Shown: piece by piece, positions 10,495 to 35,207 of the stretch | Layout of the letters: each line of letters opens with the position of its first letter | How positions within the stretch are numbered: the first letter of the stretch is position 1 | Source of the DNA: a virus | Taxonomy: Duplodnaviria > Heunggongvirae > Uroviricota > Caudoviricetes | Reading direction: 5' to 3' (one strand) | Virus record (IMG/VR): IMGVR_UViG_2939127364_000001 | DNA: 64,000 nt | Notes under the pieces: model-generated | Told to the model about the DNA's origin: nothing | Databases searched by the model: none | Seen by the model: only the letters and a program-made list of their open reading frames with translations | Program-made: the position numbers and the translations under genes

Positions 10495-12834
10495 TTAATC
10501 TTCTAATTCATCTGTCGGTGATGTCTTCTCGCGCCTGTCATCTATTGCCTGTAACGCAGCAATGATTTCAGCTAATGGCTTCTCCCGGTACATCTCGACG
10601 ATCTGTGATTTGGTGTATTTCTTCTCGCCAATTTCCACACGCCCGCTGGCGCTCTTGGGCAGGTATCCTTCCTCCAGCATGTATTCGACCAGAGACTCGA
10701 CGACGTCCAGCCCGCGAGTCGGGTCGAAGTAGAATTTCCATGAGCATTTGCCAAACGGAGGCGCGACTTTGTTTTTAATGCACTCGGCGCCAACGTCCTG
10801 TCCGATCTTCTCTTTGCCATCCTTCATGACGGATGCACCCAGACGGATGCGCACCGACGCGTAGAACTTCGGAGAGTCGCCACCCGGAGACGTAGTCGGA
10901 TCGCCAAACATCACACCAATTTTGGTACGCACCTGGTTCAAGAAGATGATGCACGCGTTGTACTTACGCGCCCAAAGCGCCAGAGTAGGGAAGTTCGCAC
11001 TTGTCGCGCGCGCCAGCGCCGTGTTGTCGTTCATGTTCAGCTGATCTTTGTCCTTCGCAGTGCCTTCTGCCATCTTGTCGAACTTCTCAGCCTTCGAGTT
11101 CGGAACCATCGACGCCAGAGAGTCGGCTACGATGCAGATAGGGGCTGTTTCCGGAATAAGCTCTTCGTCGCGCACCAGCTTGAGGATTGTGCCGATCAGC
11201 TCTACGGAGTCTTCGAAGGTATCCGGCTGTTTGTAGACCCACTGACCGTCGTCTTCGTCGGCGTTCAGTCCGTTCGCTACCGCCAGACCAACGTCGAAAC
11301 TGTTTTCGTGGTCAAGGAATACGGCCAGACCATCCTGTTTTTGTGCTGACACCATCGCAGCCGTCGCGAGGAATGTGTTGTGGCTGATAATCCCGTTAGA
11401 CCAGAAAGAGTGTGTTTCCGGCATCGCTACGTCGAACGTTGGTGCTTCACCTTCCTCAATAGCCACGACTTCGTCGTAGAACAAGTTAGAGTCAATTACC
11501 GCTGCCAGTTGTGCAAACAGATGCTCGTTAAAACGATTCTTTCTGCCAATGAAGGAGACATAGATTTCTCGCAGTTTGTCTATTCCGACACGATCGCCGC
11601 GGCCAATAACGTGATCTACCAGAACGTAGTCTTTACGAGAGGTCTTGGTGAGTGACTCGTAGAGTGATTTCACTAAGCCGCTGATGTGCGGAGCGTAGCC
11701 TAAATAAGTGCGGTCAAAACTAATGTCCCGTTTGGTTGCCACTGCTAAACGAGCCGGAGACTCGAACCCAATCGTTGACAGGAAAAGGTCGTAGTTAGAG
11801 CCACTGAATGACAGCCGGTAATATATGTTTTTATAACCTGCGACGTGTTTTTCAGAGATAGTTGACGTAATCCCCAGATTCAGGAGCATGAGGCGAATTT
11901 GCTGTAGCAGCAGCCCACTCGCGCTCACAACCTCAATGCAGCGACCATCATTGACGTGGCATTCCAGCTCAAAGTAGCCGCGAAGGAATGCAATTTGAGC
12001 CTCGCTATTGGCGCGACGCACACTCAACGGAACCTGCTTGCCAGCAGCTTTCTCATACTCCAGACCATATTCTTTAAAAAGCAGCGAACGCACCTCTTTG
12101 CTAAACAGCACATGGTCTTCCGAGCCGTTATGTTTTCTCGTAACTGGCATCTTGTCTGATACCAGCGAAATGAGGCGGTAGTACTCATCCTTGATGAAAG
12201 GATCTGTGTTAGAAAAATTCACTGAATTTTCAGAGGCCACGTATCCGTCAGCAATTAAATAGCCCATCAGTTTTGCGATATTGGCATCCAAGTGCTGATC
12301 GCCGAATTGATGTGTGCCAACCATTGAAGGAATCGTGTCGCCTACACTGATTTTTTCAGCATGCCGCCAGACGATATTGCCTAAGTCGTCAACCACACGA
12401 ATTGGGTGACGGAACGTAGCCTCGATGTAACCCCCTGATGCCAGCTTAATGCGCTTGAATTTGCGACGGTTGTTCCATGTCAGGTGTGAAGTCTTCTCTA
12501 TCACGCCATTTTCATTGATGAGTCCAACGTTATGCTCTACATCGCGAGTAGTGCATGTTGCTTTGTGCCCCTCAATCTCAAACAACTCTTTCACTGTTAC
12601 CATTCCACGCTCCGTCAGCAGCATGGTGTCTGCGGTAACACATTTCCCCGCGCTTGGTGGCCCGAATACTTCTACGATACGACCACATGGGAAACCGCCA
12701 TCGTAACGACCGGAAATAGCTTTGTTTAACGGAGGAAAGCCTGTGTCAATCCAATGAGTTACTTTCTGAATTTCGTCGTTGCTACCGATTTTCTTTTTCA
12801 GAGCAAGTGCCAGTGCGGATTTTCCTTTTGCCAT
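10495..12834 (-). CDS. recA: RecA-family recombinase interrupted by an intein
   Basis: N-extein GRIVEVFGPPSAGK (RecA P-loop) then Cys; C-extein IFLNQVRTKIGVMFGDPTTSPGGDSPKFYASVRIRLG matches the RecA core; total 779 aa vs ~350 for RecA. Confidence 0.85.
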   Translation of the reverse strand: MAKGKSALALALKKKIGSNDEIQKVTHWIDTGFPPLNKAISGRYDGGFPCGRIVEVFGPPSAGKCVTADTMLLTERGMVTVKELFEIEGHKATCTTRDVEHNVGLINENGVIEKTSHLTWNNRRKFKRIKLASGGYIEATFRHPIRVVDDLGNIVWRHAEKISVGDTIPSMVGTHQFGDQHLDANIAKLMGYLIADGYVASENSVNFSNTDPFIKDEYYRLISLVSDKMPVTRKHNGSEDHVLFSKEVRSLLFKEYGLEYEKAAGKQVPLSVRRANSEAQIAFLRGYFELECHVNDGRCIEVVSASGLLLQQIRLMLLNLGITSTISEKHVAGYKNIYYRLSFSGSNYDLFLSTIGFESPARLAVATKRDISFDRTYLGYAPHISGLVKSLYESLTKTSRKDYVLVDHVIGRGDRVGIDKLREIYVSFIGRKNRFNEHLFAQLAAVIDSNLFYDEVVAIEEGEAPTFDVAMPETHSFWSNGIISHNTFLATAAMVSAQKQDGLAVFLDHENSFDVGLAVANGLNADEDDGQWVYKQPDTFEDSVELIGTILKLVRDEELIPETAPICIVADSLASMVPNSKAEKFDKMAEGTAKDKDQLNMNDNTALARATSANFPTLALWARKYNACIIFLNQVRTKIGVMFGDPTTSPGGDSPKFYASVRIRLGASVMKDGKEKIGQDVGAECIKNKVAPPFGKCSWKFYFDPTRGLDVVESLVEYMLEEGYLPKSASGRVEIGEKKYTKSQIVEMYREKPLAEIIAALQAIDDRREKTSPTDELED
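11377..12642 (-). other. Intein (~422 aa) with LAGLIDADG homing-endonuclease domain inside the RecA P-loop
   Basis: Begins CVTADTMLL (block A), TFRH (block B), LMGYLIADGYV and FLRGYFELECHV (LAGLIDADG motifs), ends ...WSNGIISHN followed by Thr. Confidence 0.8.
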
Positions 12835-12836
12835 GA

Positions 12837-13109
12837 TCAGGCTCCTTTTGTTTCGTTGATTCGTTTTAAAGCGGCGGATTCGTCGAATACAATCGCATCG
12901 TGATTAAGGAGTCTGGATACACGAGCGAGGATTTTTACGACCTGCTCGCTGACTAATCCAAACTCGCGATCTGTCGCTTTCATTCCGGCAGCGCCTAGAA
13001 TTGACGGCAGTGCGATGACAGCGTACTCACCGTGATAAAAGACAATCTCTTTTGCCAGTTGGGTGGGGGTGGTTGTAGCGCCATTAATAATCGATTTAAG
13101 CATTAGCAA
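12837..13109 (-). CDS. Hypothetical protein
   Basis: 90 aa ORF between recA and exonuclease genes, translationally coupled. Confidence 0.4.
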   Translation of the reverse strand: MLMLKSIINGATTTPTQLAKEIVFYHGEYAVIALPSILGAAGMKATDREFGLVSEQVVKILARVSRLLNHDAIVFDESAALKRINETKGA

Positions 13110-34414: not shown

Positions 34415-34457
34415 GTGCTTTCCTTTGTTTTTTAAACAAATTGTTTTCTAGTATTAG

Positions 34458-35207
34458 TTAATTAGATAGGGGATCAATAAACCGCCGTGCTTCTTCCAGT
34501 TCTTCTGGAAAGTGGGCGGAAATAAGGCGCTCTGGAACGATTTCCATTAGCCAGATAGCGGAGAAAATTGCGCGTATGCGCTTGCTGCGAGGGATGGTGC
34601 GCAAACGCTCCAGAATCCACTCAAAATAGCTTTCCTGAATCGGGTTGAACTGCATGTCTCCCATATGCTTAAAGCTAACGAGAGAGTCATCCAGACGGGT
34701 TGTTGCGCGTCTGGCTAATTTCTCTTCGAATATCTCAATCAGCTCTGGCTGCCATAAATGCTGTGGGCGCGGCAGCTTGTCCCACAGCCGTCGTGCAGCT
34801 GCGGAAAGAACGGTGGAGATAAAGTAGTCGTATGAGCAGCAATAGCGATCCGCAAACTGGCGTGCTTTCCATAGCGACGTTTTGTTGGCAGTCGACAACT
34901 CCTGATAAGGCAGACGTTTTAACCCGGTGGTGAACGGAGCTGTTTCAAAGTGTTCGCGACCGTGCGTCAGCATGATATTTGAGTACTGACGTTTGTATGC
35001 CTCCGTAAAAAGACAGGTGGCCATGAGAGGATGCATGTCGCGGTAATCAAACCACTTCGTCTCGAAGAGTTCAGCCTCGTCTTTACAGCGCGACAAACCA
35101 ATGTTTTCAGCGACCCACTTGTCCATAACAGCGGTATTCCACTCTGTCATGAAGTCGTACTGGTCGTTGTCGATGGTATCGAAAAAGATTTGGCTCATGT
35201 GGCTCAC
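34458..35207 (-). CDS. Hypothetical protein (first gene of helicase-primase operon)
   Basis: 249 aa ORF. Confidence 0.4.
   Translation of the reverse strand: MSHMSQIFFDTIDNDQYDFMTEWNTAVMDKWVAENIGLSRCKDEAELFETKWFDYRDMHPLMATCLFTEAYKRQYSNIMLTHGREHFETAPFTTGLKRLPYQELSTANKTSLWKARQFADRYCCSYDYFISTVLSAAARRLWDKLPRPQHLWQPELIEIFEEKLARRATTRLDDSLVSFKHMGDMQFNPIQESYFEWILERLRTIPRSKRIRAIFSAIWLMEIVPERLISAHFPEELEEARRFIDPLSN

Follow-up and report, generated by a model that had tools for sequence, protein, structure and literature searches.

Origin of the question

How would a phage-encoded replicative polymerase of bacterial type be held on its template if no sliding clamp is encoded alongside it? The question is raised by a 64,000-nucleotide stretch of tailed-phage DNA (the window), in which a sequence-only reading had described the region 10495-35207 as a near-complete replisome built around a bacterial-type Pol III alpha (DnaE), with no clamp or clamp loader in sight, so that the polymerase would have to recruit the host beta clamp or function without one.

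The element and its replication module

The element is a known phage-plasmid of the SSU5/pHCM2 type, common in E. coli. Its closest known systems are the SSU5/pHCM2/pMT1-type phage-plasmids, which also include Salmonella phage SSU5 and plasmid pYLMB53a; across the region in question, nucleotide identity is 97.6% to Escherichia phage Cyrano (OV696614) and 98.3% to the E. coli plasmid pCPF6-IncFIB. The RecA-to-helicase gene order, RepA and siphovirus structural genes are common to the element and its SSU5-type relatives, whereas the accessory islands differ: in place of the element's fimbrial operon, pCPF6 carries a type I R-M system and Cyrano small membrane genes, and the element has one extra tRNA-Tyr. 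The dnaE gene occurs in 242 of 5426 E. coli genomes, on plasmids only. Positions 36.3-64 kb align to Cyrano genes annotated for partition, toxin-antitoxin, lysis, tail and head functions. Gene content outside the window is deduced from relatives that are mosaic outside the core; there, the relatives encode an epsilon-like 3'-5' exonuclease, RNase H, UvsW, SbcCD and a RuvC-type resolvase, and nrdAB are present in Cyrano and pCPF6.

Public records already carry annotation for the whole replication and recombination module. Genes were called by Pfam, NCBIfam and PHROG profile matches, and all named replisome genes lie on the minus strand:

1-1056, Rep3-type RepA
1832-10335, chaperone-usher fimbrial operon flanked by IS1/IS3, an accessory island
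10495..12834 (-), RecA-family recombinase (UvsX analogue); Pfam RecA PF00154, E=1e-36
12837..13109 (-), conserved 90-aa ORF; phrog_2207
13103..14098 (-), 5'-3' exonuclease / FEN; 5_3_exonuc_N E=2e-24, 5_3_exonuc E=5e-12
14108..15136 (-), T4 gp32-type single-stranded DNA-binding protein; Pfam gp32 PF08804, E=1.6e-66
15254..15685 (-), UvsY-like recombination mediator (weak assignment); phrog_2058 E=6e-69, phrog_231 'UvsY-like' E=1.9e-4
16818..20324 (-), DnaE-family (C-family) DNA polymerase, 1168 aa; PHP, DNA_pol3_alpha E=5e-73, DNA_pol3_finger, HHH_6
20505..21740 (-), CobS-like MoxR-type AAA+ ATPase; Pfam AAA_5 E=2e-15
21836..23944 (-), CobT-like VWA protein; Pfam CobT_C E=4e-82, CobT E=5e-27
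24888-25991, integrase
26202..26447 (-), glutaredoxin; Pfam Glutaredoxin E=9e-11, PGAP 'GrxA family' in relatives
27016-27669, four tRNAs
29096..30418 (-), ATP-dependent DNA ligase; Pfam DNA_ligase_A_M E=4e-13
30415..30897 (-), conserved 160-aa ORF; phrog_5055
30953..31735 (-), conserved acidic 260-aa ORF between primase and ligase; phrog_4248
31811..33064 (-), DnaG-like primase (Toprim); Toprim_2 E=2e-4, DNAG_N E=2e-5, TIGR01391 E=2.7e-9
33074..34414 (-), DnaB-like (SF4) replicative helicase; DnaB_C E=4e-13, TIGR03600 phage_DnaB E=5e-14
34458..35207 (-), conserved 249-aa ORF upstream of the helicase; phrog_2500

Regulator genes also lie within 10495-35207. The DnaE, helicase, primase, FEN, ligase, SSB-like, RecA and glutaredoxin genes of the sequence-only reading were thus all found where it had placed them. 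The RecA gene, annotated as such in Cyrano, is interrupted at about aa 73-486 by a LAGLIDADG intein (LAGLIDADG_3 E=9e-18, Intein_splicing E=7e-12). The role of FEN is primer removal; its start codon is uncertain (945 bp annotated in relatives), as is that of the primase (1116 bp). The SSB encoded at 14108-15136 is of the T4 gp32 type (PF08804) and not a bacterial SSB. The weakly assigned mediator is annotated as UvsY in Cyrano, and distant loci carry a gene of similar size at the same position. Glutaredoxin probably serves nucleotide metabolism, as RNR reductant, rather than the replisome to which it had been assigned. The CobT-like VWA protein is the partner of the AAA_5 ATPase, which scores 86 bits against TIGR01650, far under the 558-bit cutoff. 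The gene order cobT-cobS-dnaE is conserved, with cobT-cobS directly upstream of dnaE here and in five of five distant loci, where the HhH-UDG half of the polymerase is 26-41% identical. The 90-aa ORF has no Pfam or NCBIfam match, the 160-aa ORF none in Pfam, NCBIfam or the PDB, and the 249-aa ORF no significant match in any of the three; the last could, at a guess, be a loader or an initiator. The 260-aa ORF has no PDB sequence match, and its homologues are restricted to SSU5-type elements.

A C-family polymerase ending in a UDG-like domain

In the PDB, the DnaE protein matches the Pol III alpha structures of Taq, Mtb and E. coli (E=1e-125 to 1e-115). Over aa 1-950 it can be aligned with E. 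coli and Thermus alpha through its PHP, palm, thumb, fingers and (HhH)2 domains; it shares the GS motif and the NKSH steric-gate region with them, and identity to E. coli alpha is 34% overall; the score against NCBIfam PRK05673 is 701 bits, under the 1002-bit cutoff. The parts of the gene that matter here are:

19425..20324 (-), PHP domain; Pfam PHP E=6e-13
18621..19073 (-), span of the catalytic Asp triad codons: D418 19071-19073, D420 19065-19067, D568 18621-18623
17961..18104 (-), 48-aa insert, aa 741-788, between fingers and HhH domain
17448..17960 (-), (HhH)2 duplex-binding domain; Pfam HHH_6 E=3e-16, aa 862-951
16821..17447 (-), linker helices and degenerate family-4 UDG-like domain, aa ~960-1168

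D418, D420 and D568 align to D401/D403/D555 of E. coli and D463/D465/D618 of Taq. Because this triad is intact, and invariant in all 43 full-length relatives, the polymerase looks active as judged from its sequence, and the proposed refutation by a degenerate, inactive DnaE homologue fails. The PHP domain, on the other hand, appears inactive as an exonuclease because metal-ligand positions are lost: M-V-R stands in place of the N-terminal H-x-H motif, E. coli R10/H12/D19/D69/H83 correspond to M/R/E/K/S, and the family as a whole does not conserve these positions. Proofreading would thus have to be supplied in trans.

The polymerase departs from the canonical Pol III alpha. Its (HhH)2 domain, whose AF2 model matches Taq alpha, is the counterpart of the Pol III alpha 'beta-binding domain' without the clamp-motif loop, and beyond it the OB fold and tau-binding C-terminal domain have given way to a degenerate UDG-like domain of family 4. 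The description as simply a bacterial-type Pol III alpha needs this correction. The UDG-like domain was recognised by profile (TIGR00758 UDG_fam4 E=4.9e-7; Pfam UDG E=0.018) and by fold: its AF2 model (pLDDT 90) matches 4zbx, 1l9g and 1ui0 in a Foldseek search of the PDB at E~1e-10, with TM up to 0.81, and the family profile matches 4zbx at E=5e-23. It is degenerate in that it has no Fe-S cysteines and reads LDNAN for GE[AG]PG in motif A and NPN for HP[SA] in motif B.

The DnaE-UDG family is large (140 clusters at 50% identity), and many of its members keep the Fe-S cysteines, which are lost in the SSU5 branch. Splitting of the polymerase into two genes is frequent and falls at aa ~740-790, the junction marked by the 48-aa insert, which is missing from E. 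coli and Taq alpha and present in just two of the 43 fused relatives. HNH endonuclease genes split the dnaE of relatives; in Klebsiella phage GArcari-2022b the gene is split at the insert position with an HNH gene in between, and five distant loci also have dnaE split at aa ~741-788.

Is a clamp needed?

No ORF scanned between positions 1 and 36248 matched a clamp or clamp-loader family, and E. coli DnaN had no match in the six-frame translation of the window (best E=1.7), in line with what had first been noticed. The rest of the element was covered through three complete relatives, with the same outcome: neither clamp nor loader was found in phage Cyrano (annotation, with the poorly annotated proteins also scanned against Pfam), plasmid pCPF6 (PGAP annotation) or plasmid pYLMB53a, nor in the 10 kb on each side of dnaE of five distant relatives. 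Of the E. coli Pol III holoenzyme genes, those for beta, gamma/tau, delta and delta' were thus found neither on the element nor on its complete relatives.

The polymerase also differs from E. coli and Thermus alpha in the parts that dock to a clamp or to tau. Its sequence has no PF01336 (OB fold) match, which ordinary DnaE fragments do have, no tau-binding C-terminal domain, and neither the internal nor the C-terminal beta-binding motif; the segment that carries the internal motif QADMF in E. coli is deleted across the whole family. The linker and C-terminus are confidently folded in the AF2 model and leave no flexible loop to present a motif. Strings of the form Qxx[LM][FLM] are confined to core motifs and to a helical QAELM (aa 966-970, conserved as Q-x-E-L-[ML]), which fits loosely. 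With a UDG-like domain in place of the OB fold, tau-binding domain and beta motifs, the enzyme is most likely clamp-independent. That it uses host beta or no clamp, as the sequence-only reading put it, is trivially true; the evidence leans to no clamp.

Our preferred reading, to which we give a probability of about 55%, is that of an SSU5/pHCM2-type lytic replication and recombination module whose DnaE works without the host clamp and whose UDG-like domain is a candidate DNA anchor. Going by what is known of the family, the plasmid state would be copied by the host replisome from a Rep3-type RepA origin. In the lytic state, gene content suggests that the element would rely on its own DnaB-like helicase, DnaG-like primase, C-family polymerase, gp32-type SSB, FEN and ligase, to which RecA, the UvsY-like mediator and gp32 may add T4-style recombination-dependent replication; in relatives, UvsW, SbcCD, RuvC, RNase H and the epsilon-like 3'-5' exonuclease, encoded outside the window, would belong to the same set of functions. 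The polymerase would copy DNA with neither host beta nor clamp loader, and the UDG-like and (HhH)2 domains together are candidates for holding it on DNA. The polymerases of T7, T5 and SPO1 need no host beta clamp or clamp loader, and in vaccinia D4/A20 a UDG (D4) has a known processivity role; the acidity of the UDG-like domain (pI 5.15), however, counts against its acting as an anchor.

It is unlikely, in our judgement, that DnaE instead uses host beta by a non-canonical contact, with the host loader loading the clamp. Such a contact could be made by the Q-x-E-L-[ML] string or by an adaptor, for example an exonuclease subunit with a clamp motif. QAELM fits the loose motif just after the HhH domain, near the site of QADMF in E. 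coli, but it is predicted to lie inside a well-packed helix (pLDDT ~90) and its counterpart in the alignment is the E. coli helix 'RAALM', which precedes the real motif, and the QADMF loop, C-terminal motif and tau-binding domain are all missing. As to an adaptor, the epsilon-like exonuclease (185 aa) corresponds roughly in size to the E. coli exonuclease domain alone, and on inspection of the sequence, rather than a formal scan, its C-terminus shows neither a clamp motif nor an alpha-binding tail. The host clamp is abundant, and a theta (HolE/Hot-like) gene in pYLMB53a may point to some involvement with the core subunits of host Pol III, but that gene is missing from the window, Cyrano and pCPF6.

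Less likely still is a processivity or accessory factor of the element's own that escaped recognition, be it the 260-, 160- or 249-aa ORF or the CobS-like/CobT-like pair. The three ORFs are conserved members of the replication module, the 260-aa protein shares with clamps an acidic character (pI 5.1), cobT-cobS adjoins dnaE here and in five of five distant relatives, and E. coli is not known to have a cobN partner for a cobaltochelatase. Against this, none of the candidates resembles any clamp or loader family in sequence or by profile, the 260-aa protein is predicted (in an unreliable AF2 model, pLDDT 51) to be mostly helical with one 4-strand meander, not like the beta-rich clamp fold, and MoxR-type AAA_5 ATPases and clamp loaders belong to different AAA+ clades. 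Moreover, cobST pairs, usually read as cobalamin-related, are widespread in tailed viruses with other polymerase families (PMC8651126; PMC3037004).

Least probable is an accessory, repair or translesion (DnaE2-like) polymerase or a relic, with the host Pol III holoenzyme replicating both plasmid and lytic states: RepA as plasmid initiator, partition genes on the element, HumD/UmuD-like genes in relatives and the frequency of DnaE2 among plasmid-borne C-family polymerases (PMC3919608) speak for it, but the DnaE1 model scores 701 bits and the error-prone model 415, a partner imuA or imuB is lacking, none of 43 diverse relatives deviates in the active site, and dnaE is grouped with gp32, FEN, RecA and SbcCD in a gene order that is deeply conserved, with helicase, primase and ligase nearby.

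Comparison with known systems

With the T4 system of recombination-dependent replication the element shares a recombinase of RecA/UvsX type, a gp32-type SSB and a UvsY-like mediator; further counterparts in the element's relatives are a UvsW-like helicase, SbcCD (gp46/47 analogues), a RuvC-type resolvase and RNase H. The T4 polymerase is the B-family gp43 whereas that of the element is C-family, T4 uses gp41/gp61 where the element has a DnaB/DnaG-like helicase and primase, and the T4 gp45 clamp and gp44/62 loader have no counterparts on the element.

The DnaE-UDG architecture itself is not new. From Y. pestis and S. enterica a further DnaE, 'DnaEX', in which an archaeal-type UDG replaces the OB fold and C-terminal domain, was noted in 2014 in one sentence limited to architecture (Timinskas et al. 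2014, PMC3919608), and has the same PHP, Pol3 core, (HhH)2 and family-4 UDG arrangement as the element's protein. Family size, two-gene splitting and loss of the Fe-S cysteines in the SSU5 branch go beyond that description.

The absence of clamps from phages with C-family polymerases was noted in 2011, when a beta homologue was found in only one of 28; these polymerases were described as lacking similarity beyond the fingers (PMC3201878). In the SPO1/T5-type PolA and in vaccinia D4/A20, as in the element, a UDG-superfamily fold is physically linked to the replicative polymerase of a virus without a sliding clamp (PMC3201878). The UDG-like domain of SPO1/T5-type PolA differs in being N-terminal, and its role as an intrinsic processivity factor is itself only a proposal (PMC3201878); a BFVD fold search finds the same UDG-like fold in many phage A-family polymerases.

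The element and its replication genes

The element is an SSU5/pHCM2-type phage-plasmid, as judged from its identity to Escherichia phage Cyrano (OV696614), Salmonella phage SSU5 and the E. coli plasmid pCPF6-IncFIB (pCPF6), from dnaE matches confined to plasmids, and from a Rep3-type repA combined with phage genes. Plasmid replication and partition genes are joined to a full siphovirus structural module, with a gene run that leads from repA (Rep3_N; 1-1056, at the start of the window) through the replication module to the lysis, tail and head genes; ParA and the structural and lysis genes were assigned by alignment to Cyrano. 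For the 3.5-kb polymerase gene, identity is 96% to Cyrano and 88% to SSU5. In reverse orientation, window 10336-35379 and Cyrano 57566-31149 share 97-98% identity; the replication region itself (10495-35207) reaches 97.6% with Cyrano and 98.3% with pCPF6. Among 5426 complete E. coli genomes, dnaE is matched in 242 (about 4%), on plasmids in every case and never on chromosomes. SSU5-type phage-plasmids are common in Enterobacteriaceae, and such elements carry resistance and virulence cargo. They form a well-described group (PMC7969092).

The sequence-only reading had described a near-complete replisome built around a bacterial-type Pol III alpha (DnaE), and every gene that it named is present, with Pfam, PHROGs and NCBIfam in agreement.

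Replication genes of the window
10495-12834, minus strand, RecA with a LAGLIDADG intein
13103-14098, minus strand, 5'-3' exonuclease (FEN)
14108-15136, minus strand, T4 gp32-type single-stranded DNA-binding protein
15254-15685, minus strand, weakly UvsY-like protein
16818-20324, minus strand, DnaE
26202-26447, minus strand, glutaredoxin
29096-30418, minus strand, ATP-dependent ligase
31811-33064, minus strand, DnaG-like primase
33074-34414, minus strand, DnaB-like helicase

The RecA intein is in frame (about aa 73-486 of 779) and accounts for the PGAP name 'LAGLIDADG family homing endonuclease' given to the whole gene in relatives. The interval also holds a CobS-like AAA_5 ATPase, a CobT-like VWA protein, an integrase, regulators and four tRNA genes, together with ORFs without assignable function (one of 90 aa and conserved ones of 160, 260 and 249 aa). 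The tRNA genes (27016-27669) are Ser-TGA, Thr-TGT, Tyr-GTA and Asn-GTT; Cyrano, pCPF6 and the E. coli plasmid pYLMB53a have three each, with Tyr missing, and Cyrano has no sequence that aligns to window 27118-27592. Just beyond the module, a 255-aa ORF (35481-36248, plus strand), named LEM-3-like GIY-YIG domain protein in relatives and without alignment to Cyrano at the same position, may be another mobile nuclease gene.

Between repA and the replication module lies an accessory island (1832-10335) that is missing in Cyrano, an IS1/IS3-flanked chaperone-usher fimbrial operon together with a 246-aa ORF. A few E. coli plasmids from pigs and poultry carry it, for example pYLMB53a at 99.6% identity, and the equivalent slot in pCPF6 is occupied by a type I R-M system and a group II intron.

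Features of the fimbrial island
1886-2583, IS1
2816-3364, YehD-like subunit
3385-4098, PapD chaperone
4226-6712, usher
6718-7737, fimbrial protein
8016-9289, IS3-family element

pYLMB53a is 99.6% identical over the first 10.4 kb but just 96.8% in the replication region, and is a mosaic relative rather than the same plasmid. It carries a 61-aa Pol III theta gene (HolE/P1 Hot-like; L015, the pYLMB53a locus, 23934-24119, outside the window) that adjoins a HumD-like gene and a type I R-M island. This gene was considered as a sign of dealings with host Pol III; since the window, Cyrano and pCPF6 all lack it, it was treated as cargo.

The catalytic core of DnaE

Pfam domains and PDB alignments define a core that consists of PHP, a Pol-beta-like palm with three catalytic Asp, thumb, fingers and (HhH)2. 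D418, D420 and D568 align to D463/D465/D618 of Taq alpha and to D401/D403/D555 of E. coli alpha, and all 43 full-length relatives aligned with MAFFT keep the triad without exception; conservation extends to the GS motif and the FNKSHS region. The proposal that loss of this triad might betray a degenerate, inactive homologue is therefore not borne out. The PHP metal-ligand positions are lost, with M-V-R at the N-terminus in place of the H-x-H motif, so that an intrinsic PHP exonuclease seems unlikely from the alignment; a 185-aa DnaQ/RNase_T-type (epsilon-like) exonuclease is encoded by relatives, outside the window.

Similarity to Pol III alpha proper (DnaE1) ends at about residue 950, past the (HhH)2 domain. 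The protein scores 701 bits against the Pol III alpha equivalog NF004226, below its 1002-bit cutoff, and the match spans model positions 9-726 of 1146. Kazlauskas and Venclovas (2011) observed that viral C-family polymerases lose their similarity to Pol III alpha past the fingers (PMC3201878).

A degenerate UDG-like domain at the C-terminus

The last ~220 residues of DnaE give weak matches to uracil-DNA glycosylases (UDGs) in Pfam (E=0.018) and PDB (4zbx, E=0.011), and a clear match to the family-4 UDG model TIGR00758 at E=4.9e-7 with 29.6 bits, against a cutoff of 125 bits. As a lone homologue query the C-terminus retrieves close fragments only, and the family became visible through exhaustive representative and profile searches: the domain profile matches 4zbx at E=5e-23, and the exhaustive representative search with the C-terminal region yields 140 clusters at 50% identity, 44 of them DnaE proteins of 1000-1300 aa matched at the C-terminus and about 34 of them proteins of ~390 aa. 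An AF2 model of aa 780-1168 built from 34 sequences reaches pLDDT 90; its N-terminal half superposes with Taq alpha, and its C-terminal half resembles the family-4 UDGs 4zbx, 1l9g and 1ui0 and UdgX (Foldseek E~1e-10, TM 0.76-0.81). Profile and model agree that aa 960-1168 would adopt the UDG alpha/beta fold, and the predicted architecture is that of DnaE-UDG, in which a PHP-Pol3-(HhH)2 core is followed by a family-4 UDG in place of the OB and C-terminal (CTD) domains.

The motifs of an active family-4 enzyme are absent from this domain: LDNAN replaces motif A GE[AG]PG, T-G the uracil-reading T-N, and N-P-N the H-P-[SA] motif, while the family consensus at these motifs reads x-D-x-P-x, T-x and N-P. 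No CxxC is found among the Fe-S ligands of the window protein, where MAAEMGLGEE stands at a site at which many relatives keep C-x2-C, nor any Cys at the other 4Fe-4S positions. Judged by these residues the domain is degenerate. Timinskas et al. (2014) described an unusual DnaE variant of DnaE-UDG architecture (PMC3919608), and their variant is the present family, which occurs on plasmids pMT1 and pHCM2; a literature search yielded no experimental work on any phage enzyme of this kind. UDG-like domains are also seen on polymerases of another family: an analogy with vaccinia D4/A20 led to the proposal that those of the SPO1 and T5 PolA proteins act as intrinsic processivity factors (PMC3201878), and a BFVD fold search finds the UDG-like fold joined to many phage A-family polymerases.

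Docking sites for the host clamp and tau

To our knowledge, all characterised C-family replicases need the beta clamp and tau-mediated coupling, and the question is whether DnaE retains the means to engage either. A domain search for a clamp-binding motif had been proposed as a check, and no canonical beta-binding motif was found in the 1168-aa protein. There is no PF01336 (OB fold) match in DnaE, and aa 960-1168 are predicted to be UDG-like rather than OB. Nothing in DnaE aligns to E. coli aa 1079-1160, the region of the tau-binding CTD and C-terminal clamp motif, and the protein ends (...ADIAETINK) with the final helix of the UDG-like fold, without QxxLF. The internal motif, 920-QADMF-924 of E. 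coli in the loop after HhH, falls in a segment that is deleted in DnaE and in the relatives with inspected alignments, and QxxLF is absent from the linker, which AF2 folds confidently. Regular-expression matches were rejected where they coincide with conserved core strings (QSGML, QEQIM) or the N-terminal PHP region (QDSII). The one loosely motif-like string beyond the catalytic core is QAELM (aa 966-970); being helical and aligned to the E. coli helix RAALM, it is not a credible clamp motif and is kept as a caveat. That DnaE uses the host clamp through a non-canonical contact, with QAELM as a candidate site, is unlikely in our estimate, with every canonical docking element missing.

The search for an element-encoded clamp or loader

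The sequence-only reading had seen no clamp or clamp loader, and every search, in the window and, via relatives, in the rest of the element, agrees. The scanned window ORFs show no Pfam, PHROG or NCBIfam match to beta, PCNA, gp45, gamma/tau, delta, delta', RFC or gp44/62. Neither a clamp nor a loader appears in the curated annotation of Cyrano, in the PGAP annotation of pCPF6 and pYLMB53a, or in the 10-kb flanks of dnaE on both sides in the five distant metagenomic relatives. When the poorly annotated Cyrano proteins from beyond the window were scanned with Pfam, none was recovered, whereas an RNase H, an RNase_T exonuclease and an AAA_28 kinase-like protein were. With E. coli DnaN as query, phmmer gave noise (best E=1.7) on six-frame translations of both the window and Cyrano. 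A beta homologue was found in only 1 of 28 phages with a C-family polymerase (PMC3201878).

A highly divergent clamp might lie among the ORFs without assignable function, and more broadly a cryptic factor encoded by the element might serve DnaE. The candidates, the 160-, 260- and 249-aa ORFs, sit among the ligase, primase and helicase genes (30415-31735; 34458-35207) and have no family match and no PDB sequence match. The 260-aa ORF was considered as a cryptic clamp; its homologues are limited to SSU5-type elements and its AF2 model is unreliable (pLDDT 51); that the 249-aa ORF upstream of the helicase is a loader or initiator is a guess. Overall, such a factor appears somewhat less probable still than an unorthodox contact with the host clamp.

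The CobT-like VWA and CobS-like MoxR AAA+ (AAA_5) genes (20505-23944) lie directly upstream of dnaE, as they do in all five distant relatives. The literature reads the pair as cobalamin-related only, and it is widespread in phages with other polymerases; on these grounds a replication role was set aside, being retained at low probability. The usual reading, in which CobS/CobT boosts cobalamin synthesis via host CobN, fits poorly with E. coli hosts.

Split and fused forms of dnaE

In Klebsiella phage GArcari-2022b, dnaE consists of two genes (787 and 389 aa) with a NUMOD4/HNH endonuclease gene between them, and the split point coincides exactly with a 48-aa insert (aa 741-788) in the window protein. 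The same site is split in five distant relatives, the gap being filled by an HNH gene in four and by small ORFs in one.

Split-dnaE loci
Window 17961-18104, the insert
L009 (a split-dnaE locus) 1501-5753
L010-L014 (the five distant metagenomic relatives) about 6300-11200

The halves comprise ~770-790 aa (PHP, palm, fingers) and ~390-400 aa (HhH and UDG), with a free-standing HNH endonuclease gene between them in most cases, and one cluster of C-terminal halves, 92% identical to the window protein, has 1459 member sequences. Two unrelated HNH families use the gap in different relatives, a sign that this intergenic site was invaded repeatedly, and on this ground the idea of the HNH gene as a domesticated polymerase subunit was rejected. 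Of 43 fused relatives, 41 are without the insert; ~50 extra residues are seen in just two, one of them the window protein, so that its gene looks as if a secondary event had re-fused the halves of a split dnaE.

Gene order is largely conserved in the five distant loci, namely cobT, cobS-like, dnaE, a UvsY-sized ORF, gp32, usually FEN, RecA, SbcD and SbcC, with FEN missing in one and gp32 or SbcD lacking a Pfam match in some; the HhH-UDG half in these loci is just 26-41% identical to that of the window.

A clamp-independent replicase?

DnaE combines an intact C-family active site with a predicted UDG-fold C-terminal domain of degenerate motifs, it has no canonical beta or tau docking elements, and its element family encodes no recognisable clamp or loader. 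We favour the reading that DnaE-UDG is a clamp-independent replicase, with a probability of roughly 0.55. The observations behind the sequence-only reading are confirmed, and its interpretation, that the polymerase must recruit host beta or function without a clamp, is supported in part only. A role for DnaE other than replicase, beside an invariant active site and its own helicase and primase, is the least probable alternative.

As a clamp-independent replicase, DnaE would copy the ~110-kb genome in the lytic cycle without the host clamp, aided by the element's helicase-primase, gp32, FEN/RNase H and ligase and by an exonuclease acting in trans, and its grip on DNA would come from the (HhH)2 and UDG-like domains, although the acidic nature of the latter (pI 5.15) is a weakness of this reading. 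Initiation could be recombination-dependent, by means of a T4-like set whose RecA, UvsY-like protein and gp32 are encoded in the window and whose UvsW, SbcCD and RuvC come from other parts of the element. During maintenance as a plasmid, RepA would presumably bring in the host replisome.

Literature and databases already contain the element with its module and annotation as well as the DnaE-UDG architecture, and the finding itself consequently adds no new biology. The clamp question is real and testable, and belongs to a family that was recognised long ago; it is not a discovery made in the window. The value of this work lies in a sharper, testable question on the role of the UDG-like domain. 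The family is a natural experiment in a C-family polymerase running without clamp or tau, and lytic independence from host Pol III accessory proteins would bear on host range and on the effect of clamp-targeting antibiotics on these elements.

Comparison with known systems

More tentatively, and with less confidence than in clamp independence as such, the degenerate UDG-like domain may be a built-in DNA-gripping clamp substitute that makes for a self-sufficient C-family replicase without clamp or tau. It would be a widespread phage solution (at least 140 protein clusters), often in two subunits split at the fingers/HhH boundary, and a case of convergence on what is seen in poxvirus D4/A20 and in SPO1/T5-type A-family polymerases with their UDG-like domains. 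The CobS/CobT-like AAA+/VWA pair, invariably found next to dnaE, might then help replisome assembly rather than cobalamin synthesis. Compared with a T4-type replisome, the element has no PolB, clamp or loader in the window, whereas gp32 and RecA are present and UvsY is weakly matched. The module is not a member of the T4-type replisomes, but partly resembles T4 recombination-dependent replication.
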